In this document: one piece after another, positions 4,119 through 57,204 of the stretch
How positions within the stretch are numbered: position 1 is the first letter of the stretch
Layout of the letters: each line of letters begins with the position of its first letter
Source of the DNA: Escherichia phage Ec_Makalu_003
Length of the DNA stretch: 64,000 nt
Strand: one strand, 5' to 3'
Sequence record: MN882349.1
The notes under the pieces: model-generated
Database searches by the model: none
Told to the model about the DNA's origin: nothing
What the model saw: only the letters and a program-made list of their open reading frames with translations
Translations under genes and position numbers: made by a program

Positions 4119-6019
4119 CAAAGCAAAAGATTACACAAATTCCTGATATTTTTAATGCTGCTACATTCGATGAAATTAAAAGCGCATTAACCGACTGGAT
4201 GAGAAACCAGGAAGAATTTAAAGATTTTGATTTTAATGGTGCTGGTATTAACGTATTGATGGACTTGCTCGCATATAACACTCTGTATATTCAGCAATTC
4301 GCCAACGCCGCGCTATATGAATCTTTTATCAGAACGGCAATTAAGCGTAGTTCAGTTGTTCAAGCCGCGCAAGATTTAGGATATTTGCCAGCGAGTAAAA
4401 CTAGTGCATCGACTACAATTATGTTGCATGTTTCCCATCCACGAAATCCGGCAAGTATTCGAATCCCACGAGGGACTAAATTTATTGCAAGTGTGGATCG
4501 CCAGACTTCTTACCCATTTGTTACTACAGAAGACGTTGTGAGCGTTTTAGGTTCAAATGGTTTATATACGCCTATGCTTAAAGTCGCACAAGGTCGTATT
4601 GTTCGTACAGAAATGTTATTTGATCCGAAGAAACAAATTCTGATCCGTGACCCTGATATTGACCGCGCTCAGGTTAAATTGTGGGTGGACGGTGCTGAAT
4701 GGAAAGACTGGACACGAGAAAGTATTGTTAATGCAACTGGCGCAAGCAATATTTTCTATATGCGTGAAACCGTAGACGGACATACAGAAATTTTCTTTGG
4801 TGAAGGTGAATCAACCTTATCTGCGGCTGGCGGGGCGCTGGAAGCAAATTATATTGGTGGACTTAAGCCGTCAACTGGCGCTAATATTGTTATCGAATAT
4901 ATCAGCACTAAGGGCGCGGAAGCAAACGGTTCAGTTAATTTCACATACGCGGATACCCTTGCATCTATCTCTATTGTTAAAATTATTGAGAATCCGACAA
5001 ATGATCGTGATTATGTCGGTGCAGATGGTGGTGGTGATCCTGAATCAATCGAACGTATCCGTGAACTTGCTCCGGTAATGCGTGAATCTCAGCGTCGTTG
5101 TGTAACTGCTTCCGACTACGAGGCTTTTGTTTCTAGCCGTTTTGGTAGTATTGTTCAGGCGGTACAATGTTTCACCGACCGAGAGAAACCGGGTTATGCT
5201 TTTGTTGCTGTTAAGCCTAAATCTGGATTGCGCTTGACAACTGTTCAAAAAGAAGATATGCGCGATTATCTGGCAAAATATAATCTTGCCCCTATCACAC
5301 CGAGCATCATTGACCCTAACTATCTGTATATTAAACAGAATATTAAAGTTTCCTATTCAATCAACGACTTGTCAGAATCAGAGCAGTGGTTGCGTGGTGC
5401 GGTCATTGATCAGATTGATGCATATTACACCGACGAAGTGGAAATTTTTAACCAGACCTTTAGTAAGTCTAAAATGCTTGCGCGCATCGACAAAGCTGAT
5501 GTATCTGTGATAGGTTCTAGTGCAGAAATCGAGATGGTGCGAGAGATCGACAACTTCTATAAAGCACCGATGGCTGGAATCAAGTTTTTAAACCAGTATA
5601 AGAGCGGAATCAAGTCTAGTTCATTCAACTTCGAAAAGGACGACAAGCAATATCCGATCCATTATGTAAGTACAGAAATGAACAAAGAATCCGGTTTAGC
5701 TAAATTGCTGGTTGGACCTTTCCCTGTTGGTTCTGCAATCGCTTTACCGCACTATTCCGGCACTGATTTTGATAAAGAGGTTATCGACGGTGCGGACCTA
5801 TACTTTGAGGTTGGAGAGGTTCAGCATTATGACGACCTTATTTCATGGGATCTGGGTAAACTGAATATCAATAGCGATCGCTTTACTGGTTCATATATTG
5901 AGTTGACAGCTAAACCGATTGCTGATAACATCTTTACTAAAGACGGTTCTTTGATCGTGTTTGAAAACGATCTCCGTCCTCAGTACACAACTATTAGTCT
6001 GGAGGCAATTGCTCAATGA
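4115..6019 (+). CDS. 6: baseplate wedge subunit gp6
   Basis: 634 aa (T4 gp6 660 aa); start overlaps gene 5.4 stop; gene order. Confidence 0.85.
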
Positions 6020-9000
6020 TTAAAGCGCCTAGTGTAACTAGCTTGACAATAGAAAAATTGTCTGCTAATCAGGCGTATATCACATGGGATGACGTAGGCG
6101 AAAACTTCTTTTATTTTGTAGAGTTAGCCGAAACCAGAACACGAGACGGGGAGATCATCCCCGTCGATGAGTTAAGCTGGGTAAACCTGGGATATACTGC
6201 CGATCAAAACTGGTTTGAGGATAAAAACCTTTTTCCAGAATATTATTACAAGTTTCGTGTAGCAGTAGCCGCAGAAGGATTCGAACAAAGTAAATGGATT
6301 GAAACCGAAGAGTTTCAGACATTTAAGACAAACGCATATAATTTTTCTATGATGCGAGAGTTCAACCTTGCAAACGAGTTTATAAAGGAAAAATTTACAT
6401 ACGATAATAGAGAGTATGTCAAGTTTAATACTGACCTGATTCAAGCATCATTGATGAAGGAAGATTTTGTCTTTAGTCCTGAATATGCAAACATGACCAA
6501 TATCTCAAACTACATTGTAGTTGATGAGAACTTTCATGAAATACAGGACCACATAGAAAAAGTTTGTACTGATATAAACCGCACGATGTTAGCGGAAATG
6601 AACGGTGTTTTGTACCTTTTCGAACGGTTCCAGCCGATCGTGAAAGTGTCAAATGATAAAGGTCAATCATGGAAAGCATACAAGGCTTTTAATGACCGTG
6701 TAGGCAATCCGGTTTCCCGTACATGCGTTTATCAGTCTAAAACCACTACTTACGTTTTAGGATATGACCGAATCTTTTACGGACGACAAGCGAGCGATAC
6801 TAGATGGAGCGCGGACGATGTTCGATTTAGTGATGATACGATCACTTTTGCAAAGGTTGGTGACGAAAACGACTTAGGGTTTGATGTTGAGGTCTTTGGT
6901 GTATTTTCCAGATTAACAGGTGATACCACAAAATACGCCGAAGCTATGGCGTGCAGTGATGACTATTTGTGGGTTGGTGCTAAGGATGTTATTCGCCGGA
7001 TTCGTCTTAAGAATACTCCAGTTGATACCGTTCAGGGTTCGCCTACATTTGGGGAAAAGATATTTGACCCTGATATTATCCGAGTAACAGGAAATGACAA
7101 AGCTGTTATTCAGAAAATGGATGTTGTTGACGGAAAATTACTGGTATTTGTTACGGGTGAAGTTAAACAGCGTTATCAAGATCCGACCAAACCAGAAAAC
7201 GTTGTACCGTCAGATGATGCTGGTGTATACTTAATAGGGAGTGATGGTCTGTCTTTTCAGAGAGTATTTGGCAACACTCCGCAGGAAAGGGAATATATTC
7301 AGCACGGGTTCAGTAATATGTCAACCAATGGTGATGAGGTGTTCATAAGCCATTATAATCATCACTTCGAAAGCATTTTACCTGATCCAGAAACTGCCGC
7401 AAAATATGAATTAGGCGAAGCTGTGAAATATTCTCAGGAGCCAACTTATCTAACTGATAAGAAAATACATCAAACGACTTTCAGAGCAAGTTATGATGAT
7501 TTGCGTATTTGGGAGTTAGGACCGCAAGCGTATTATAATGAGGCTGATTATACATGGATGCGTCGAAACGGTGTCCGTGTGTGGATCACAAATGATAATC
7601 GCCCGTTGGTTGTTTATCCAGAGGTTATCTATACCCAAGAAGTTGATACATCTGGCATTCTTGACCAAAATAGGGTCAACCGAGAAGTTTATGATAAAGG
7701 GACCGTGACCTGTTATCTTAACAATGTTAAATTTGAAGGGTTCAAACAATATGCATCCGGTGTAATGTTCCATAAAAACACGGGAGAGATCATTGGATTC
7801 TATCAATTTAATTATCGTGTTCGTGACCAAGTTGGTGTATATTGGAAACCTACAAATGTAGCATTTGTTGCTGAATTACAAAATCAGGTTCGAGAGGTTC
7901 CCTGGGTTCCTGTTCATTATGACAGAGAGCAAGACCCAGATTTACGGCCTTTACTGAATAAGATGACCCCGGATAGCTTTTTGCTTGAGAACGAAAATTT
8001 CAGAAAATTCTCTGAATATTATCTGCAATTCTTAAGTGATGGTTCAGGAACATATTATAATAAACTAAAAAATCTGATTAAAAACAAATACCCACGCGAG
8101 CAAGATGCATATGAGTATCTTTGGTCAGAGATGAACAAACGAAACATCTATGCAGATAAAAACAAGCGAGATGCGGTAGTAAGATTCTTCGAATCCCGCA
8201 AATCAGATTTTTATTCCACTAAGGGCGTGGAGGCTTCTTATAAGTTCTTGTTTAAGTTACTTTATAATGAAGATGTGGAAATTGAGGTTGAATCGCAAGC
8301 CGGACTAGAGTATGATATTGTTGTTAGTTCAACGAACATTGACGAGGATATCGTAGGTCGCACGATCTATACTCCAACCGGACGGGCTAACGTGACGTAT
8401 CTTGAAAGGGAATATGAAGGTGGTCGCCTACGCTGGCGAGTAACCATTCATAACCTGATCGGGCGGTTCGAAGAAGGTCAAGTGATCAAATCAGAGAAAA
8501 CAGCGTTTGAAGGGATGATCCTTGTTGGTGTACGTGGTAAAGAGTTGTTGAGTAGTTCAATCGACTATATCAACCGCTCACGAAGCCAATACACCATGAA
8601 GATTAAAAGTGCATTACCAGTTTCGCGCTATGCAAATGATGTAATGCGATTCGTTCATCCTGTCGGCTTTGGGTTTATCGGTGTTACCCTGCTTACGATG
8701 TTCATTAACAGCGGGTTGAGCATGAAGCACACCGAGACTATAATTCAATCTCTGAAAAATTATAAGTTTGACAGCGGATTGCCTAGCGTGTATCCTGATC
8801 GGGTGGCAGACCTTGACGTTGACGGAAACATTAAGAAAGACCCGCTTACCGGAAAAGCATTATATTTGACTTCACCTTTAATCGGTGAAGAATTTCCGGT
8901 TCCTCCTGAATATGATCAGGAGAACAGCGAATTGTTCCACGGACTTAAAGCAAGCGAACGAAGATTTGCAATGAGTCCACTGTTTGACCAGTCGGCGGTA

Positions 9001-49653: not shown

Positions 49654-51705
49654 TTACATTTTAAATTTATCCGGCATAGCGTCTACAGACACAAGATCAG
49701 CGATAAGCTGACGTAGAGTTGCCTTATCTGCTTTCTTACGTTCGGTTTTAGCTTCGGTAATGAAGCTGGAGAAAGACAGGTCAGAAGCAGGTTTAACAAC
49801 ACCTTCACGGATGAATGCATCACCGTCCGCGATCATCTCACCAGATTCTTGTAATGCTGCCAGTTCATTTTTGTTCATAATATGTGCCTCAATGTAATAA
49901 GTTTCTTGTGAATCCGTCGATGCCGTAGCACGAGTTACCGTATCAAAGGATAACACAACACCGCGAGGAAGTAAAATCTCGCATTCTTTGTAAGCAAATG
50001 CTTTGTTACCTACTGGCAATACAGGGATGTTTTCCGCGCCAGCAATGGAGAAAGCAACATTAGCGCCACCTTCACCGCGAGATCCAGCCATAGAATCAAC
50101 ACCAGCAACGGCACTAGCCACGTTTGCATTCCATCCACCAAAAATATTAGGTGCAAGGGAAGTGCTCACATAGTTTTTAAAGTAAAACGCTTTTTGCTTA
50201 CGTGCAGTTTCCCACATTTGAGAACGGAAGTCCATACCACGATACAAGATAGTACCTGGATCAAGTTTAACACCATAGTTAGCAAATGCGTTATCCAGTG
50301 CATCACACATCTTGACCAATTCTTCTGGGTCTGCGATGCCTTCAAACTCTTCCAGCTTACGGTCGGTTAGGAAGTTGTTCATATTGATGTATGCTGCATC
50401 CGCATATTCGCTCAACACAAAACCTTCCGCGCCAGGCAGATCAAGATCAATATCTGCCATCATTTCACCCATGTTGCTAGCAATTGCTTCAAACATACCG
50501 GAAGCAACATTACGCAGGGCATCGGTTTTAATCTGCGTGATGTGACTACGCAGCATTTCAGCTTTTACATCTGCTGGCATAGACTGGTCGACGCGATCCA
50601 TTGCCAGGGCGGTGATCTTGTTTTCGAATACTTCCTCGCTCATGATTTCTTTTAAGCGTTTGATTGATGCTGCGATAACTTCCGCAGACAACGGATCATA
50701 TTGATCCTGAACTTTTACCAGTTCGCTTACTGCATATTTTGCATCGGCTTCGCTTTCAAAAATAGTACGCATGAAACCATAGCGAGTGATAATATCACTT
50801 GTCCAGTCATTCAGAGAACGGGCGGTTGAACGTTCTAAGGCTTGACGGTCAATCAGAGTATTAAACTGTTTCTTAGGTTCTGCTTCGGTGATATCTTCTT
50901 CCGGTTTAAGATTAATTTTTTCTGGATGATTCACATAGTCGCTGTTATAGGTCGCTTGAGTTTTCAGCATTTCTTCTTTAGTCAAACGAGATTTAGCCGC
51001 TACGCGTTGTTCTGCTTCCGCGTTTCGTTCTTCTTCCGACACAAGACTAGCCGCATACGCCTCATCTTTAGTCAGAGATTCACCAGTAGCCTTAGATACC
51101 CAGCGATCACCTAAATCACTTTCTACTTTAGTGAACAGGGATTCATCGAGTTTAATCCCTTTAATCTTATCAATCGCCATCCCGCGACGTTTGACAACAA
51201 CTAAAGCGATCTTTTTGCTGGTCATTACTTCCTGCTGGAATACTTCAAACTTCGGTGTACGACGCACCAAACGCTCTATAACGCGCTTAACCAGTTCGGT
51301 CTTACCTTTCATGCGGGATACGTTAAAACGGAACATAACAGCGTCTAATTGCGCTTTACGGGCTGTTTCCATGACCACATCAAAAGCACTTGACATAACT
51401 GCAATCGGGTTATCTCCTAGACCATTTTTAAGCTGTACAATACGACCGCTTTTGTTCATTTCGCACAGTACAACATGTGCGGTCTTGTCACCCATACGAA
51501 TGATTTTAGGTGTTTTGTTGGTGAAGTTACAAAGACGGACAATCACATCTTTATCGCGTGTCTGTACTGCAAAAAGCTGTTTAGGATTCTGCTTAGGCTT
51601 TAAGCACTGTACCGGAGCAATACTGCCAAAGTTTTCTTCCTCTTCCGTCAACAGCCATTTCTCGAAAGATTCAATCATTAGATCGTCGATTTCTAAGTTA
51701 AACAT
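49654..51705 (-). CDS. alt: ADP-ribosyltransferase Alt
   Basis: 683 aa (T4 Alt 682 aa); C-terminal domain with ILYRGMD, NYVSTSLAPNIFGGW, ECEILLPRG. Confidence 0.85.
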   Translation of the reverse strand: MFNLEIDDLMIESFEKWLLTEEEENFGSIAPVQCLKPKQNPKQLFAVQTRDKDVIVRLCNFTNKTPKIIRMGDKTAHVVLCEMNKSGRIVQLKNGLGDNPIAVMSSAFDVVMETARKAQLDAVMFRFNVSRMKGKTELVKRVIERLVRRTPKFEVFQQEVMTSKKIALVVVKRRGMAIDKIKGIKLDESLFTKVESDLGDRWVSKATGESLTKDEAYAASLVSEEERNAEAEQRVAAKSRLTKEEMLKTQATYNSDYVNHPEKINLKPEEDITEAEPKKQFNTLIDRQALERSTARSLNDWTSDIITRYGFMRTIFESEADAKYAVSELVKVQDQYDPLSAEVIAASIKRLKEIMSEEVFENKITALAMDRVDQSMPADVKAEMLRSHITQIKTDALRNVASGMFEAIASNMGEMMADIDLDLPGAEGFVLSEYADAAYINMNNFLTDRKLEEFEGIADPEELVKMCDALDNAFANYGVKLDPGTILYRGMDFRSQMWETARKQKAFYFKNYVSTSLAPNIFGGWNANVASAVAGVDSMAGSRGEGGANVAFSIAGAENIPVLPVGNKAFAYKECEILLPRGVVLSFDTVTRATASTDSQETYYIEAHIMNKNELAALQESGEMIADGDAFIREGVVKPASDLSFSSFITEAKTERKKADKATLRQLIADLVSVDAMPDKFKM

Positions 51706-51746
51706 TTTATATCCTCTAGTTGATAACCTATAAACCTATATTTATG

Positions 51747-51771
51747 AAAAAGGGGCTTAACACCCCCATTT
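51747..51771 (-). terminator. rho-independent terminator (minus strand)
   Basis: Hairpin GGGGGTGTTAAGCCCC followed by TTTTT on the minus strand. Confidence 0.6.
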
Positions 51772-51772
51772 A

Positions 51773-51985
51773 TTATAATGCACCATCGAGCAATTGCTCT
51801 AAGGTGTATCCTGAATAGTCTTTTTCAATCAGGATATATTTTCCTACTCGTTTAATACAACCGCGCATTTCAACGTATTCTGCGTAGTTGATGGTGCGAG
51901 TTGTTCCATCTTCTAGTAAAGCAGTACCGATTTCGTTAATGCGGTCATAAGTTACGTCGGTAATGATGATTTCGATGTTAGCCAT
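51773..51985 (-). CDS. hypothetical protein
   Basis: 70 aa; starts MANIE, sharing its first 15 nt with the ORF at 54109-54360; preceded by promoter cassette C1. Confidence 0.55.
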   Translation of the reverse strand: MANIEIIITDVTYDRINEIGTALLEDGTTRTINYAEYVEMRGCIKRVGKYILIEKDYSGYTLEQLLDGAL

Positions 51986-52021
51986 TTGATACTCCTTAGT
52001 AGTTCGTTTCGGTATGGGTGT

Positions 52022-52050
52022 ATTATGATATACACCCTCTGTTATGTCAA
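52022..52050 (-). promoter_or_regulatory. repeated early promoter cassette C1 (TTGACA-17-CATAAT)
   Basis: Minus-strand -35 TTGACA, 17-nt spacer, -10 CATAAT; inverted repeat GGGTGTAT/ATACACCC spans the -10; conserved leader and AGGAG SD. Confidence 0.6.
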
Positions 52051-52056
52051 CAACTT

Positions 52057-52236
52057 TTAGAACATTTTTGAAATTAATTCTGCTTTGATTTCGCAGAGAA
52101 CATCTAAAGATTTCTCGTCACCCGCTTTTGCTGCTTCTGCTTGCATTTTTGAAATGGCTTCAATGTCAGTGCAATTATAAGCCGCTTGAACTTTAGCGAT
52201 TGCGATGATTGCCGATTCGATGGTTAAGTGTTTCAT
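52057..52236 (-). CDS. hypothetical small protein (59 aa)
   Basis: Minus-strand ORF preceded by cassette C2 with SD AGGAG; below track cut-off. Confidence 0.5.
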   Translation of the reverse strand: MKHLTIESAIIAIAKVQAAYNCTDIEAISKMQAEAAKAGDEKSLDVLCEIKAELISKMF

Positions 52237-52268
52237 GTTTGATTCTCCTTTCGTTTCGGTATGTGTGC

Positions 52269-52297
52269 AGTATAGGGGATCGCCGATCCCCTGTCAA
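52269..52297 (-). promoter_or_regulatory. repeated early promoter cassette C2 (TTGACA-17-TATACT)
   Basis: The 17-nt spacer is the perfect palindrome GGGGATCGGCGATCCCC; same cassette as C10. Confidence 0.6.
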
Positions 52298-52304
52298 CAA
52301 CTTT

Positions 52305-52823
52305 TTAGTTATTTTTTAATTGCTCATCTTGCAATAATGCAATCACATGCTGGCGATGTTCTTCCGATTGAGGAACACCGAAAAAGTTTGTTTTGTAGAA
52401 ATACTCTAATCGGTCTTCTCGTGTGCTCTCTTCCATCATGATCGCGGGTAGTCCAAGATTTCGGAAACGTCGCTTTTCTGCTGGCGTAAAATCACTGTAA
52501 TACAACATAGAATCATCATTACCAGCAATGCTAAACTCATCCTTCATAAAGGAGAATATTGCGTTTAAACGCTGTTTACCGTCCACGATTTCGATCTCAT
52601 AGCGAGAGCCATCATCAATCTTAGCCATTGCGATAGCACCAACCGGAAAATCATTAATCAGGTTTTCGATAAACATACGTTTGTTTTCGGTGTCCCATAC
52701 CAAAGGACGCTGATAATCTGGGTTCATGTTGATATAGCCATCTTCTAACCACGCCTCATAAACAGAGATGACAAAGTTTTTAGTATTGGTATAGTAACGG
52801 CGTTTAGGCGTTAAACGGTTCAT
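52305..52823 (-). CDS. DUF262-like (ParB/Srx-fold) protein
   Basis: 172 aa from ATG 52823 (SD AGGAG); DYQRPLVW and VDGKQRL resemble the DUF262 N-terminal motifs (DGQQR type); last gene of a five-gene operon. Confidence 0.55.
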   Translation of the reverse strand: MNRLTPKRRYYTNTKNFVISVYEAWLEDGYINMNPDYQRPLVWDTENKRMFIENLINDFPVGAIAMAKIDDGSRYEIEIVDGKQRLNAIFSFMKDEFSIAGNDDSMLYYSDFTPAEKRRFRNLGLPAIMMEESTREDRLEYFYKTNFFGVPQSEEHRQHVIALLQDEQLKNN

Positions 52824-52824
52824 G

Positions 52825-53157
52825 TTATAGTCTCCTGAATGGATCATCACGTAAATCAATATCTTTTAAGAACTCATCCCATGAATGGCGGATAATGTTC
52901 TTAATTCTCCAGATAAGCGCAGGGATTGAACGCTCTCCCATCTGGAAGTAAGGATCATATGATCCATATGCCCAATATGCTACTACAATTCCACAATCGG
53001 CGCAATAATATTCTATTTCACTTGCTGGCGACCAAAGTCCATCAATATGATCACGGATCTTGCTTTCGATGTTATGGCTATGGCAATCAGGGCAACGGAT
53101 GCAATGACCTTGTTTATCGTAATTTGACGTTAGCGAATACTTAAACAATCTCATCAT
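52825..53157 (-). CDS. zinc-ribbon protein
   Basis: 110 aa; CIRCPDC ... CADCG (CxxC...CxxC); start overlaps upstream stop. Confidence 0.55.
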   Translation of the reverse strand: MMRLFKYSLTSNYDKQGHCIRCPDCHSHNIESKIRDHIDGLWSPASEIEYYCADCGIVVAYWAYGSYDPYFQMGERSIPALIWRIKNIIRHSWDEFLKDIDLRDDPFRRL

Positions 53158-53870
53158 AGATCCTTATTGGCTTCAAATACTGCCTTTGCGAATCCTCGCG
53201 GGGTAAGTGACCTGATAGTCTTTGTTCTGGTTCCTTTCCCGCCTAGCTTAGAATGCTGTTTACTGTACCCTTTATTAATCTGCAACGGTTTCTTTTCTGG
53301 CATTATAAAGCCTTGTCCGGTCCATAAGCAAGTCTTTTTCGGGTACATATCACGGGCGGCAATATACTCAGGAAACGTAGGATGCTTATCATCTTCCGGC
53401 AAATAACCGCCATATTCCCACGGATGGAACATGTAATCAGGCTTACGCCACATGCTAGAGATAACGCTTACAGGATTCTCTATCATGTAGGGAACTCCTA
53501 GCCATTCACCCAAATAAGCGGTTATTTTAGCTGCCCTTACATCATGAACTTGAATTAATGGTCCTTGTTCTCGTTTCTTTCGTTCAAAGTGCGCAGCGCC
53601 ACTAACAGCTAAATTGGTGCATGGTGGGAATGCAAAGATAATATCCGGTTTCCCCCATTCAAGGTCCATTGCTCTTTCCAGCCAATTTAAATCAATCCAT
53701 GTGTTTACATATGTAATGTTTGGATGTTCAAATCTGGTATTATATTTTTTGTATGTACCGTGGTCGCCATCGTCAGCATTAAAGCAGATCACCTTATGAC
53801 CTGCTTTAGCCCATTCTAACCCCATTATCCCCGATCCGTCAAAGTTGCAGAATATTAATTTTTGTTTCAT
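53154..53870 (-). CDS. C5-cytosine DNA methyltransferase-like protein (compact)
   Basis: 238 aa; motif I-like LIFCNFDGSGIMGLEWAKAGHKVICFNADD, motif IV-like IIFAFPPCTNLAVSG (Pro-Cys), motif VI-like MIENP; region after motif VI too short for a typical target-recognition domain. Confidence 0.55.
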   Translation of the reverse strand: MKQKLIFCNFDGSGIMGLEWAKAGHKVICFNADDGDHGTYKKYNTRFEHPNITYVNTWIDLNWLERAMDLEWGKPDIIFAFPPCTNLAVSGAAHFERKKREQGPLIQVHDVRAAKITAYLGEWLGVPYMIENPVSVISSMWRKPDYMFHPWEYGGYLPEDDKHPTFPEYIAARDMYPKKTCLWTGQGFIMPEKKPLQINKGYSKQHSKLGGKGTRTKTIRSLTPRGFAKAVFEANKDL

Positions 53871-54112
53871 ATACGCCCCTTTAACCCAACACAGATTTTA
53901 GAAGGTTCTTTGCCGTGCCACATTAAGTAAATTCCGTTAATGCGTCCTTGTTTTGTATATGATTCTTTTCTGATCTTCTTATAGTGTCGTGCTTCCTCAG
54001 CCGATTGTTTAGAATGTCGATCATAAAGGAAGAGGAACAAAGGCCAACCATTAGCGGCCTTAATGCAGTTATTCAAAAATTCCTTATTTCGTTTAATTAA
54101 TTTTCTTTTCAC
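53867..54112 (-). CDS. hypothetical basic protein
   Basis: 81 aa; GTG start overlapping the upstream stop; Lys/Arg-rich. Confidence 0.45.
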   Translation of the reverse strand: MKRKLIKRNKEFLNNCIKAANGWPLFLFLYDRHSKQSAEEARHYKKIRKESYTKQGRINGIYLMWHGKEPSKICVGLKGRI

Positions 54113-54360
54113 GCTGCCCCCATTGGTTTGATAGTAACAGAATCTAAAAGACCTTTGTTAGCCAGTTCGCGGCAAGTTTTCAGATCCGCAACTTCCCAGC
54201 CAGCCGCAATAAGGTTATCAATGAGGCTGTTAGCAACTTCTTCGCTCATGAAAGAGCACTGTTTGCCGATGGTGTAGCGTACACGCTGTAATTTCAGTTT
54301 ACGGAAGCCTTTAACGTTCAGGTCTTTAGCGATTTTCTTTGCGGTTTCGATGTTAGCCAT
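54109..54360 (-). CDS. hypothetical protein
   Basis: 83 aa; starts MANIE; first gene after cassette C3. Confidence 0.55.
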   Translation of the reverse strand: MANIETAKKIAKDLNVKGFRKLKLQRVRYTIGKQCSFMSEEVANSLIDNLIAAGWEVADLKTCRELANKGLLDSVTIKPMGAA

Positions 54361-54400
54361 TGTTTGATTCTCCTAAGTGGTATCTCGTCTTGATGGTTGT

Positions 54401-54429
54401 ATTGTAGGGGAGTTATCCTCCCCTGTCAA
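54401..54429 (-). promoter_or_regulatory. repeated early promoter cassette C3 (TTGACA-17-TACAAT)
   Basis: Spacer is the palindrome GGGGAGGATAACTCCCC; SD AGGAG downstream. Confidence 0.6.
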
Positions 54430-54443
54430 CACTTTTTATAAAA

Positions 54444-54611
54444 TTATTTGTTAATTTCTGGTGCGTTGCTAGGATAGTAACCTTCTTTAACTCCGAGGTA
54501 TTTTGCAACCATCCCTACAATCTTCTGTGCTACTACAATGTCAAATTTCAGATAATCTTCGCCGTGGGTTTCAATGATATATGCTTCACATGCTGCTTTA
54601 GTCTCGAACAT
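54444..54611 (-). CDS. hypothetical small protein (55 aa), paralog of 57726-57893
   Basis: MFETKAACEAYIIETHGEDYLKFDIVVAQKIVGMVAKYLGVKEGYYPSNAPEINK; near-identical to the ORF at 57726-57893. Confidence 0.55.
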   Translation of the reverse strand: MFETKAACEAYIIETHGEDYLKFDIVVAQKIVGMVAKYLGVKEGYYPSNAPEINK

Positions 54612-54644
54612 TTTGATTCTCCTATTTCGTTTCGGTATGTGTGT

Positions 54645-54673
54645 ATTATAGGGGATCTCCCGATCCCCGTCAA
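54645..54673 (-). promoter_or_regulatory. repeated early promoter cassette C4 (TTGACG-17-TATAAT)
   Basis: Palindromic spacer GGGATCGGGAGATCCCC; SD AGGAG downstream. Confidence 0.6.
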
Positions 54674-54687
54674 CAACTTTTTTAAAA

Positions 54688-54969
54688 TTATTCGTGATTA
54701 GTTTCGATATTGTGCATTTTGCACCAGTTCAGCCAATCGCCAAGATCTTGATAGTTGATGCTTTTATCTGCTGCCATCGTTTTTGTCTTGATACCCATAT
54801 GTGCGTTATGAGTAAGCATTTTTACAGTGAACTCAATTTTATCGCCTTTAGCTTTAACATCAACCAGTTTGGTCCACTGGCTACCAGCACCGCGAATGTT
54901 CATACCAACGATGTTTCCGATGTATGCTTCTTTGTTGTTCAGGATTTCGGTTGCTTTGATGAATTTCAT
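54688..54969 (-). CDS. hypothetical protein
   Basis: 93 aa; preceded by cassette C5. Confidence 0.55.
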   Translation of the reverse strand: MKFIKATEILNNKEAYIGNIVGMNIRGAGSQWTKLVDVKAKGDKIEFTVKMLTHNAHMGIKTKTMAADKSINYQDLGDWLNWCKMHNIETNHE

Positions 54970-55002
54970 TTTTGATTCTCCAGTTCGTTTCGGTATGGGT
55001 GT

Positions 55003-55031
55003 ATTATGCTATGTTCTTACTTTGGTGTCAA
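55003..55031 (-). promoter_or_regulatory. repeated early promoter cassette C5 (TTGACA-17-CATAAT)
   Basis: Same -35/-10/leader/SD architecture as C1; no palindrome in the spacer. Confidence 0.55.
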
Positions 55032-55039
55032 CAACTTTT

Positions 55040-55309
55040 TTAGATATTTTCAGAAATAAATTTTAAAACTTGACGTAAATGTTTCTCATCTTTGATAGTC
55101 GCCGGAAGTTCTTCTTTTACTTCCTGTGCAAGATAGATATTTCCGTTCCAAGTGAAAGACCCGTCTTCGTTTACGCGATAGCTGAACATCCATTCGCAAT
55201 CATTTTCGATTTCATATACACACAGAAGGGTGTAATCTTCAAAGCTATTGATTTCAAGGTCGAAGCCGTGGCGTTTTGCAAAGTTGGTAGTGGTTTTAGT
55301 CAGTGCCAT
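55040..55309 (-). CDS. hypothetical protein
   Basis: 89 aa; preceded by cassette C6. Confidence 0.55.
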   Translation of the reverse strand: MALTKTTTNFAKRHGFDLEINSFEDYTLLCVYEIENDCEWMFSYRVNEDGSFTWNGNIYLAQEVKEELPATIKDEKHLRQVLKFISENI

Positions 55310-55348
55310 TGTTTGATTCTCCTAAGTGGTATCTCGTTTCGATGGGTG

Positions 55349-55377
55349 TATTATGCTATAGGCGTGATCAGGTGTCA
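55349..55377 (-). promoter_or_regulatory. repeated early promoter cassette C6 (TTGACA-17-CATAAT)
   Basis: Same architecture; immediately downstream of the terminator at 55403-55428. Confidence 0.55.
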
Positions 55378-55402
55378 ATGCCTTTTTTAAAATTTTATGC
55401 AA

Positions 55403-55435: not shown

Positions 55436-55744
55436 TCATTTAGACAAATAATCATTCAGTGCAATCCGGTCGGCATGTTCCGGCGTTACATCAATCGCAA
55501 TCACTTTAACGCGTGCTTTCTTGCGACCTGGGTTTTCTCGTAACCAGTGCTCATGACCGTGAACATTTTTATACTGCGATGCTTCTTCGAAGGTACGGAT
55601 CGGACCAGGGTAATCAGCGTAAAGGATCTCTAGGTCATCGGTGATGTAAAAATATACGTTGTAATTACTGTTCTCTAGCTTAAGCAGAGACTTTCGGAAC
55701 ATTGGGAGATTTTCGCGGGTAAATTCAAAAGTAATATCTTTCAT
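55436..55744 (-). CDS. HxHW-motif small protein family member
   Basis: 102 aa from ATG 55744 (SD GAGGAT); YFYITDDLEILYADY ... HGHEHWL ... VKVIAIDV. Confidence 0.55.
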   Translation of the reverse strand: MKDITFEFTRENLPMFRKSLLKLENSNYNVYFYITDDLEILYADYPGPIRTFEEASQYKNVHGHEHWLRENPGRKKARVKVIAIDVTPEHADRIALNDYLSK

Positions 55745-56446: not shown

Positions 56447-56767
56447 TTAGTCCTCACTTATAAGGTCAAACCAATTGTTTTTCGCATAATGCTTAATGCG
56501 TGCTTGATCTGCTTCCGCTGGTGATAGATTCCATGCAACCACTACAACTTCTGACGCGTCGTCATCCGTTTCTGATACCCAATGATTGTGATTCATACAG
56601 TTATTTGCGATCGAGTGAGCAAATGATTTCATCACTGGAGACGTATAATCATAGTAACGGATTTTCAGATTTTCATCAACATACAAGTAGATCGTATAAG
56701 GTTTATATTCAGTAACCAGTAACAGACAGTTACGCAATTCTGGGAAAATCTTTTTAGTTAATTTCAT
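56447..56767 (-). CDS. HxHW-motif small protein family member
   Basis: 106 aa from ATG 56767; YTIYLYVDENLKIRYYDY ... HNHW ... VVVVAW. Confidence 0.5.
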   Translation of the reverse strand: MKLTKKIFPELRNCLLLVTEYKPYTIYLYVDENLKIRYYDYTSPVMKSFAHSIANNCMNHNHWVSETDDDASEVVVVAWNLSPAEADQARIKHYAKNNWFDLISED

Positions 56768-56768
56768 T

Positions 56769-56987
56769 TTATAATCCTCGGTCGCGGCTATAGTACACGG
56801 TACGCCATACAATTTCATGTTTCGTGTCGCTCCAGCACACGATCTCATTTACTCTTAAATCTTTGTTATCAACAAAAGATGAACATTGTGACGCTTCTTT
56901 CATCATTTTATCTGCTGTTTTCTCATCAAATACAGCACAGATTTCTTTATACACTCGATAATCTTTGAATTGACTCTGGATACCCAT
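56769..56987 (-). CDS. hypothetical protein, tandem paralog of 56947-57204
   Basis: About 72 aa; SQFKDYRVYKEICAVFDEKTADKMMKEASQCSSF parallels the upstream ORF; start uncertain (56987 or 56999). Confidence 0.45.
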   Translation of the reverse strand: MGIQSQFKDYRVYKEICAVFDEKTADKMMKEASQCSSFVDNKDLRVNEIVCWSDTKHEIVWRTVYYSRDRGL

Positions 56988-57204
56988 AATTAACACCATT
57001 CCAACCAATTGTTTTTGAGAAAACGTTTATCCACTGTTGAGTGTAGCATGTTTCTTTCCATGATACAATACGAGTAGAATAATGGTTTTTGTTTCCAGAA
57101 AAGGACGGGCATTTTGATGCATCTTCCATCATCTTTTCGGCGAACTCCGCGTCATATACCCGCAGGATCTGTTGATATGCTTTATAATCTTTAAATTTGC
57201 TCAT
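56947..57204 (-). CDS. hypothetical protein, tandem paralog of 56769-56987
   Basis: 85 aa; MSKFKDYKAYQQILRVYDAEFAEKMMEDASKCPSF. Confidence 0.5.
   Translation of the reverse strand: MSKFKDYKAYQQILRVYDAEFAEKMMEDASKCPSFSGNKNHYSTRIVSWKETCYTQQWINVFSKTIGWNGVNYGYPESIQRLSSV

Follow-up and report, generated by a model that had tools for sequence, protein, structure and literature searches.

Five small genes on the minus strand of Escherichia phage Ec_Makalu_003 (sequence record MN882349.1) are packed almost without gaps, and their predicted products include a short C5-cytosine methyltransferase-like protein, a zinc ribbon and a DUF262 protein. A sequence-only reading had proposed that this block (positions 54360-52305 of the 64,000-nucleotide stretch analyzed here, referred to as the window) forms a DNA modification or anti-restriction module. 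Do these genes indeed work together, or do they merely share a transcript? The window comes from a Krischvirus genome, that of an RB49-like T4-type coliphage, and all five open reading frames (ORFs), termed here g1 to g5 from 54360 downward, were found on the minus strand at the positions that the reading had given them. The picture that we consider likely is an early accessory cassette of independent genes, in which g3 encodes an orphan C5-methyltransferase. This replaces the proposed combination of a minimal methyltransferase and a modified-DNA sensor by independent accessory genes, and places the methyltransferase in a family that already has a characterized member.

Distribution of the g3, g4 and g5 families

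The module proposal found no support in comparative analysis, as the g3, g4 and g5 families occur apart. We analyzed 83 viral and metagenomic loci that encode g3 relatives, together with flanks of up to 6 kb on either side, using tblastn with g1, g2, g4 and g5 and profile hidden Markov models (HMMs) of g4 and g5. A relative of any of these genes was present near g3 at the Krischvirus locus only, the other 82 loci being devoid of them; the neighbors of g3 in two distant contexts were of the HNH, SIR2, Lar and NinX types. The g5 homologs adjoin unrelated genes in RB43, Matisse, prophages and metagenomic phages, and the g4 homologs adjoin DNA polymerase, frd/td or small ORFs. Single members of the block are found in the complete genomes of Peggy (g4 only) and UPF_BP1 (g5 only), as well as in 50 of the 51.5 kb of KarlJaspers (g3 only). 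Even within Krischvirus, the phage kaaroe (MN850574) has an additional 59-aa ORF between g4 and g5 (1424-1603 of the retrieved stretch), which shows that genes are gained or lost at the g4-g5 junction.

A conserved g4-g5 pair was also considered, since in RB43 and Matisse a gene of ~110 aa overlaps the start of the g5 homolog. This gene proved to be unrelated to g4: its product has no cysteine pairs, has a hydrophobic C-terminus, and matches g4 by BLASTP with an E value of 0.078. Co-transcription is usual for accessory genes in cassettes bounded by PeSL, a composite early promoter and terminator/attenuator of RB49 and phi1 (PMC2839356), and is therefore not evidence of a shared function. Five independent accessory genes on a shared transcript would thus be the simplest reading of the block.

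The methyltransferase-like protein g3

The g3 gene (53154-53870, minus strand) encodes a 238-aa protein, predicted to be a short Dcm-like DNA C5-cytosine methyltransferase. The catalytic motifs noted earlier are present and in the expected order, namely F10-x-G12-S13-G14 (motif I), P82-P83-C84 (motif IV) and E131-N132-P133 (motif VI); a lysine pair is found at K178-K179. Among 30 diverse homologs, these three motifs and further C-terminal motifs are invariant, as are the residues C84, E131 and K178, with K179 nearly so. The protein matches phrog_757 ("DNA methyltransferase") with an E value of 2e-90. Its homologs form 7,317 clusters, and all 120 listed are 219-259 aa long. Members of the family, usually labeled "Dcm-like", were found in 1,524 phage records, including Dhillonvirus, Drexlerviridae, rV5-like and phAPEC8-like phages, Webervirus and others. 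The view of g3 as an enigmatic minimal enzyme had to be abandoned, because it is typical of a very large and uniformly short (~230 aa) phage family with a characterized relative.

This relative is the Dcm protein of phage K42, which was identified in a study of retron Ec86, where all escape mutants of K42 were affected in a 711-bp "Dcm" gene (bioRxiv 10.1101/2023.08.16.553469). Expressed by itself in E. coli, the K42 enzyme is active and triggers the retron; its expression increased 5-methylcytosine (5mC) on the multicopy single-stranded DNA (msDNA), as measured by LC-MS (liquid chromatography coupled to mass spectrometry), the C82A/E128A/K175A/K176A mutant was inert, and alteration of the CCTGG motif of the msDNA led to loss of defense (bioRxiv 10.1101/2023.08.16.553469). 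The K42 genome is 95% identical overall to that of KarlJaspers (Bas06) (bioRxiv 10.1101/2023.08.16.553469). The KarlJaspers Dcm protein (bas06_0055, 711 bp; 236 aa) is 56% identical to g3 over the full length (E 4e-92) and has the same invariant motifs, and its residues C82, E128, K175 and K176 align to C84, E131, K178 and K179 of g3. Because of this identity and the alignment of the mutated catalytic residues, g3 is assigned to an enzyme family of known activity, in which it is very probably an active member. The two proteins come from different kinds of phages, a Drexlerviridae siphovirus for K42/KarlJaspers Dcm and a T4-type myovirus for g3.

Structure prediction, which had been suggested as a check for a target-recognition domain (TRD), gave a confident C5-methyltransferase fold for g3, with nothing but short loops and helices from residue 140 to 220. 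The model shows a class I methyltransferase fold, with DNMT3B and DNMT3A as the best structural matches and further matches to CmoX and Dnmt2. A DNMT3-like fold is also predicted for the K42/KarlJaspers enzyme, which the authors of the retron study superposed on DNMT3A. Among the C5-methyltransferases, DNMT3/DNMT3B have the smallest known TRD. Although these catalytic domains are closest in fold, g3 is only 13-16% identical to them, and it is the DNMT3 enzymes that are DNMT3L-assisted oligomers with chromatin-reading domains. The suggestion that g3 is too short for a normal TRD was borne out: the matched bacterial enzymes are 327-388 aa long, and no separate TRD is present in the g3 model. Compared to M.HhaI and M.HaeIII (327 and 328 aa), which represent the canonical bacterial enzymes together with E. 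coli Dcm and the family PF00145, g3 is shorter by ~90 residues or more and has almost no TRD.

The standalone DUF262 protein g5

The last gene of the block, g5 (52305-52823, minus strand), encodes a 172-aa standalone DUF262 protein with a predicted ParB/sulfiredoxin fold. The signatures DYQRPLVW and VDGKQRL, on which the original assignment was based, are indeed part of a DUF262 domain, as the protein matches Pfam GmrSD_N/DUF262 (PF03235) with 73.2 bits (cut-off, 33.2; E 4e-20). The match covers profile positions 5-105 of 199, i.e., approximately the first half of the domain, and is accompanied by a short helical tail. The characteristic motifs of DUF262 are QR, DGQQR and FxxxN (PMC11411939), and the corresponding residues of g5, Q38-R39, D81-G-K-Q-R85 and F142-x3-N146, are invariant in 30 homologs. 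As had been noted, a DUF1524/HNH partner is missing: g5 ends at 172 aa without a nuclease domain, and no nuclease family was detected by Pfam and PHROG matches in the genes immediately on either side of the block. The DUF262 fold and the motifs QR, DG(Q/K)QR and FxxxN are shared with the GmrSD-family Type IV enzymes (BrxU, SspE and Eco94GmrSD) and with the nuclease-less proteins TgvA and GmrS1. In contrast to the GmrSD-family enzymes, g5 is phage-encoded, short and without a directly flanking nuclease partner, and has DGKQR as its second motif.

An exhaustive search gave 6,168 representative relatives of g5, many of which are standalone proteins of 155-190 aa, while a second group of 260-290 aa has the domain at the C-terminus. 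A search with the g5 profile gave 2,838 clusters, all of them with PF03235. Homologs occur in the T4-type phages RB43, Slopekvirus and Karamvirus, in P22-like phages and in lambdoid Salmonella prophages, and are always located in early accessory regions. In Salmonella phage UPF_BP1 (36156-36671) and in a Salmonella prophage (6001-6516; both in coordinates of the retrieved stretches), the short DUF262 gene lies in the early-left recombination/anti-host region, near genes for the anti-RecBCD protein Abc2, Erf or RecE/RecT, Ead/Ea22 and Kil, a position typical of host-takeover and counter-defense genes.

The host systems TgvAB and GmrS1/GmrSD2 require both a nuclease-less DUF262 protein and a DUF262-nuclease, which indicates that DUF262 domains can act through partner proteins. 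A standalone phage protein of this type, such as g5 and the ~2,800 proteins related to it in T4-type, P22-like and lambdoid phages, might conceivably be a counter-defense decoy, although we regard this as quite unlikely. A nuclease-less copy of the sensor would then poison its target by forming mixed oligomers, or would compete with it for DNA, with GmrSD/BrxU, SspE, DndI, NsnA and PD-T4-2-type systems as possible targets, and in Krischvirus g5 would shield g3-methylated DNA from 5mC-reactive Type IV enzymes. The evidence points neither way: the g5 domain is intact, strongly constrained and early-expressed, but is unlinked to g3 outside Krischvirus. Nuclease-less DUF262 phage proteins are common and strongly conserved, and the question that they pose, like that of the methyltransferase motif, is not specific to this locus.

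Proposed role of the cassette

What we observed at this locus is the gene structure, the promoters, the folds, the family memberships and the lack of co-occurrence. We propose that the cassette is a set of early-transcribed accessory genes in a hyperplastic region of the Krischvirus genome, with two PeSL elements as its bounds, and that the five genes were acquired independently and share a transcript by chance. In this cassette, g3, as one of the short phage Dcm enzymes, would be an orphan C5-cytosine methyltransferase of DNA that depends on S-adenosylmethionine (SAM). By analogy with its characterized relative, it would flip the target cytosine, with Cys84 attacking C6, Glu131 protonating N3 and the methyl group being transferred to C5, and would use a DNMT3-like minimal recognition region in place of a full TRD. 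Being made early, g3 most likely methylates replicating phage DNA at a specific motif that is sparse. The mark would blunt methylation-sensitive restriction in hosts without the matching methylase, at the cost of possible exposure to sensors such as retron Ec86. The g5 protein, a ParB/DUF262 domain that is predicted to bind nucleotides and has no effector, most likely acts by binding DNA or a host DUF262-containing protein. The motif recognized by very short DNMT3-like phage methyltransferases bears on how RB49-like therapeutic phages stand against restriction systems and retron Ec86.

Target motif and modification state of the phage DNA

Several observations weigh against the proposed role of g3. 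We infer the catalytic activity, the motif and the protective role of the Krischvirus protein, 5mC formation having been demonstrated for the K42 enzyme only. Profile searches against the two expected families gave a divided result: g5 passes the PF03235 cut-off as predicted, while g3 scores 13.9 bits against Pfam PF00145, below the cut-off of 22, with a match limited to residues 10-100 (profile positions 7-87). Neither g3 nor its family profile has a sequence match to any solved C5-methyltransferase in the PDB. In BASEL, resistance to restriction did not follow in any simple way from the presence of these methyltransferase genes. The loop at residues ~190-207 occurs as two subtypes in the family, and KarlJaspers Dcm and g3 differ in it (..DNPGWAK.. 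against ..KGYSKQHSK..), so that the recognized motif may differ as well. This loop is also the least confident part of the g3 model, and the CCWGG specificity is therefore not transferable to g3. Furthermore, CCWGG ranks with the most strongly avoided words of the window, with 22 sites compared to 53.9 ± 7.2 in shuffled sequences and an observed/expected ratio of 0.28 under a Markov model. Such strong avoidance would be unexpected if g3 reliably protected CCWGG. The deamination products CTWGG and CCWAG are depleted rather than enriched in the window, which gives no sign of long-term methylation and looks like restriction avoidance. CCWGG, carried over from K42 Dcm, was accordingly not adopted as the g3 target, given the different recognition loop and the lack of support from the avoidance pattern. 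Among other words of the window, counted on both strands with a maximal-order Markov model, GGCC (0.40), AGCT (0.62) and CTTGG (0.33) are underrepresented, and GATC is not avoided (1.08). The word avoidance fits a largely unmodified phage DNA under the pressure of Type II restriction.

Measurements on a close relative speak for a sparse rather than a bulk modification. The operon of phage TB34 is 97.9% identical to the one studied here, and the strain DH5-alpha is dcm+. TB34 was propagated on DH5-alpha, and its DNA had no modified nucleosides by high-performance liquid chromatography/mass spectrometry (HPLC/MS), host-level CCWGG methylation not being reported either (PMC13390438). BrxU, which according to the authors cleaves 5mC DNA as well, also failed to cut TB34 DNA in vitro (PMC13390438). 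We rejected the HPLC result as proof of g3 inactivity, because the marks of the host Dcm were likewise unreported; the assay rules out a dense or bulk modification, not a sparse site-specific methylation. At the CCWGG density of the window, methylation would affect an estimated ~0.2% of cytosines.

Phage SAP, which is 99.96% identical to TB34, has glucosyl-hydroxymethylcytosine without a known pathway (PMC13390438). Comparison of SAP (OZ034687) and TB34 (OX001802) over a 4-kb region revealed a 79-bp tandem PeSL duplication after g5 (duplicate at 1039-1117 of the retrieved SAP stretch, compared to position 1038 of the TB34 stretch; homologous to window positions ~52240-52300) and three single-base indels. 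The five operon proteins are identical in the two phages, and the operon therefore does not account for their difference in modification. An ORF of 117 nt spanning the PeSL duplicate was called by the annotators of SAP.

Alternative explanations

The start/stop coupling of the genes and the kept g3-g4-g5 order in Krischvirus are compatible with some functional link, which is a further point against independent genes. It could take the form of a single DNA-modification or anti-restriction module, in which, for example, g4 provides recognition in trans and g5 senses or shields the modified DNA. The genes are co-transcribed and packed start to stop, their order is kept in ~56 Krischvirus genomes, and g3 itself is nearly devoid of a recognition domain. 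Split C5-methyltransferases, such as M.AquI and M.EcoHK31I, exist. ParB-type proteins frequently accompany phage DNA methyltransferases or are fused to them (PMC12783734). Such a module is nevertheless unlikely in view of the 82 g3-relative loci of 83 in which tblastn and HMM searches detected neither g4 nor g5 relatives within 6 kb, of the missing g4 and g5 in the 50 of 51.5 kb analyzed of KarlJaspers, whose Dcm has a near-identical K42 counterpart that is active alone, and of the g4 and g5 homologs that lie beside unrelated genes elsewhere, with the kaaroe insert separating the two even in Krischvirus.

For g3 itself, the C5-methyltransferase fold could serve another chemistry or substrate, such as carboxymethyl transfer from carboxy-SAM (as in CmoX), formation of another C5 adduct, or methylation of RNA or tRNA (as by Dnmt2). 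E. coli CmoA supplies carboxy-SAM, the retron study assayed 5mC alone, and Lys229 in the C-terminal G-F-A-K-A-V of g3 lies where the CmoX-type Arg might sit, in an alignment that could not be verified. Against this, the K42 Dcm gave clear 5mC on DNA that depended on the catalytic residues, the DNA of TB34 contained no unusual nucleoside, and position 229 varies in the family (K/R/A/L/E/N), unlike a conserved cofactor-selecting residue. The genes flanking the block include no cmoA- or ligase-type gene, so that neither the neighbor nor the conserved Arg of a CmoX-type system is found. The carboxymethyltransferase idea, which came from the structural match to CmoX, was thus rejected, as motif X could not be placed, a family-profile alignment was not obtained and the candidate residue is not conserved; a different chemistry for g3 in general is highly improbable. 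There is also a slight chance that g3 is kept mainly for a host-directed or regulatory role, e.g., early methylation of regulatory sites of the host or the phage. The early promoter, the BASEL result and the avoidance of the candidate site CCWGG, which leaves little to protect, would all suit such a role, yet direct evidence for any regulatory target is lacking, and members of the family occur in phages whose regulatory circuits differ greatly. Protection is the classical role of orphan methyltransferases in phages, and we retain the reading of g3 as an orphan methyltransferase that marks phage DNA.

Organization of the cassette and its surroundings

The locus is ordinary in that its genes have been known since the RB49 GenBank record and several records already annotate the methyltransferase and the DUF262 protein. 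The 3-kb region that contains the cassette shares 99.9% identity with Escherichia phage Ec_Makalu_002 and 97-98% with RB49, GEC-3S, TB34 and about fifty further records; the block is conserved in 55 of 63 Krischvirus-type records. It lies on the minus strand among many small early genes, upstream (5') of the ADP-ribosyltransferase gene alt (49654-51705). Each of the five proteins has a PHROG family match, with E values from 1e-33 to 1e-90, and the five ORFs are therefore real, conserved genes rather than chance ORFs.

The expected start-to-stop overlaps exist at three of the four junctions, each of four bases: GTGA at 54112-54109 (g1/g2), ATGA at 53870-53867 (g2/g3) and ATGA at 53157-53154 (g3/g4). 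At the fourth junction there is a one-base gap instead, the g4 stop codon TAA (52827-52825) being separated by a single base from the g5 ATG at 52823, which is preceded by AGGAG. The mechanically defined ORF of g5 reaches up to a TTG at 52859, whereas its annotated relatives start at ATG 52823.

The block is headed by a PeSL-type early promoter cassette (54401-54429, minus strand) with TTGACA, a 17-nt spacer containing a GGGGAG...CTCCCC stem-loop, and TACAAT, which scored 11/12 in a promoter scan. Its 3' boundary is the next PeSL cassette (52269-52297, minus strand; TTGACA, stem-loop and TATACT; scan 11/12), which heads the next small gene. A sigma-70-like promoter with a G+C stem-loop thus flanks the block on both sides. 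The claim that the genes sit behind a single promoter cassette agrees with this, as no promoter was found between the two, and the curated annotation of GEC-3S has promoters at the two homologous positions and none within the block. Going downstream, a canonical terminator is first met at 51767-51751. On these sequence features, one operon behind one promoter cassette appears well supported. PeSL elements flank non-essential genes of hyperplastic regions and mediate their shuffling (PMC2839356). The block resembles the PeSL and ORFan cassettes of RB49 and phi1 in the phage group, the composite promoter/stem-loops, the non-essential early genes and the hyperplastic region (PMC2839356), but those cassettes contain single ORFans (Arbiol et al., 2010) and this one contains five genes.

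The zinc-ribbon assignment of g4 (52825-53157, minus strand; 110 aa; phrog_2993, E 1e-33) was upheld, with four conserved cysteines arranged as C22-x2-C25 ... C52-x2-C55. These cysteines and the motif W-A-x-G-x-Y-x-P are invariant in the homologs from Nonagvirus SP8, Felixounavirus wV8 and the autographivirus Peggy, and the matches of g4 to Pfam zinc ribbons are weak and below the cut-off. The remaining two genes encode small basic proteins with PHROG families only: g1 (54109-54360, minus strand) has 83 aa and an isoelectric point (pI) of 9.5 and matches phrog_14908 (E 5e-59), and g2 (53867-54112, minus strand), which starts with GTG over the g1 stop codon, has 81 aa with 20 Lys/Arg residues and a pI of 10.3 and matches phrog_7065 (E 1.5e-37). 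Profile searches assigned g1 to no Pfam or NCBIfam family, and none of the five proteins had a significant match in NCBIfam. A PADLOC search gave a weak match of g1 to positions 722-785 of 938 in the RT_UG35 (DRT) model (E 2.6e-5, 20.6 bits), which may reflect chance or a shared small domain.

Within 3.4 kb (window 51700-55400, minus strand) we found six near-identical PeSL cassettes, with their first hexamers at 55378, 55031, 54673, 54429, 52297 and 52050. Most of them head single small genes, and no other stretch there is free of promoters for as long as the five-gene block. Just upstream of the cassette, two tandem pairs of paralogs are located on the minus strand. The genes at 56769-57008 and 56947-57204 both belong to phrog_8471, and those at 55436-55741 and 56447-56848 both belong to phrog_9345 and have an H-x-H-W motif in common.

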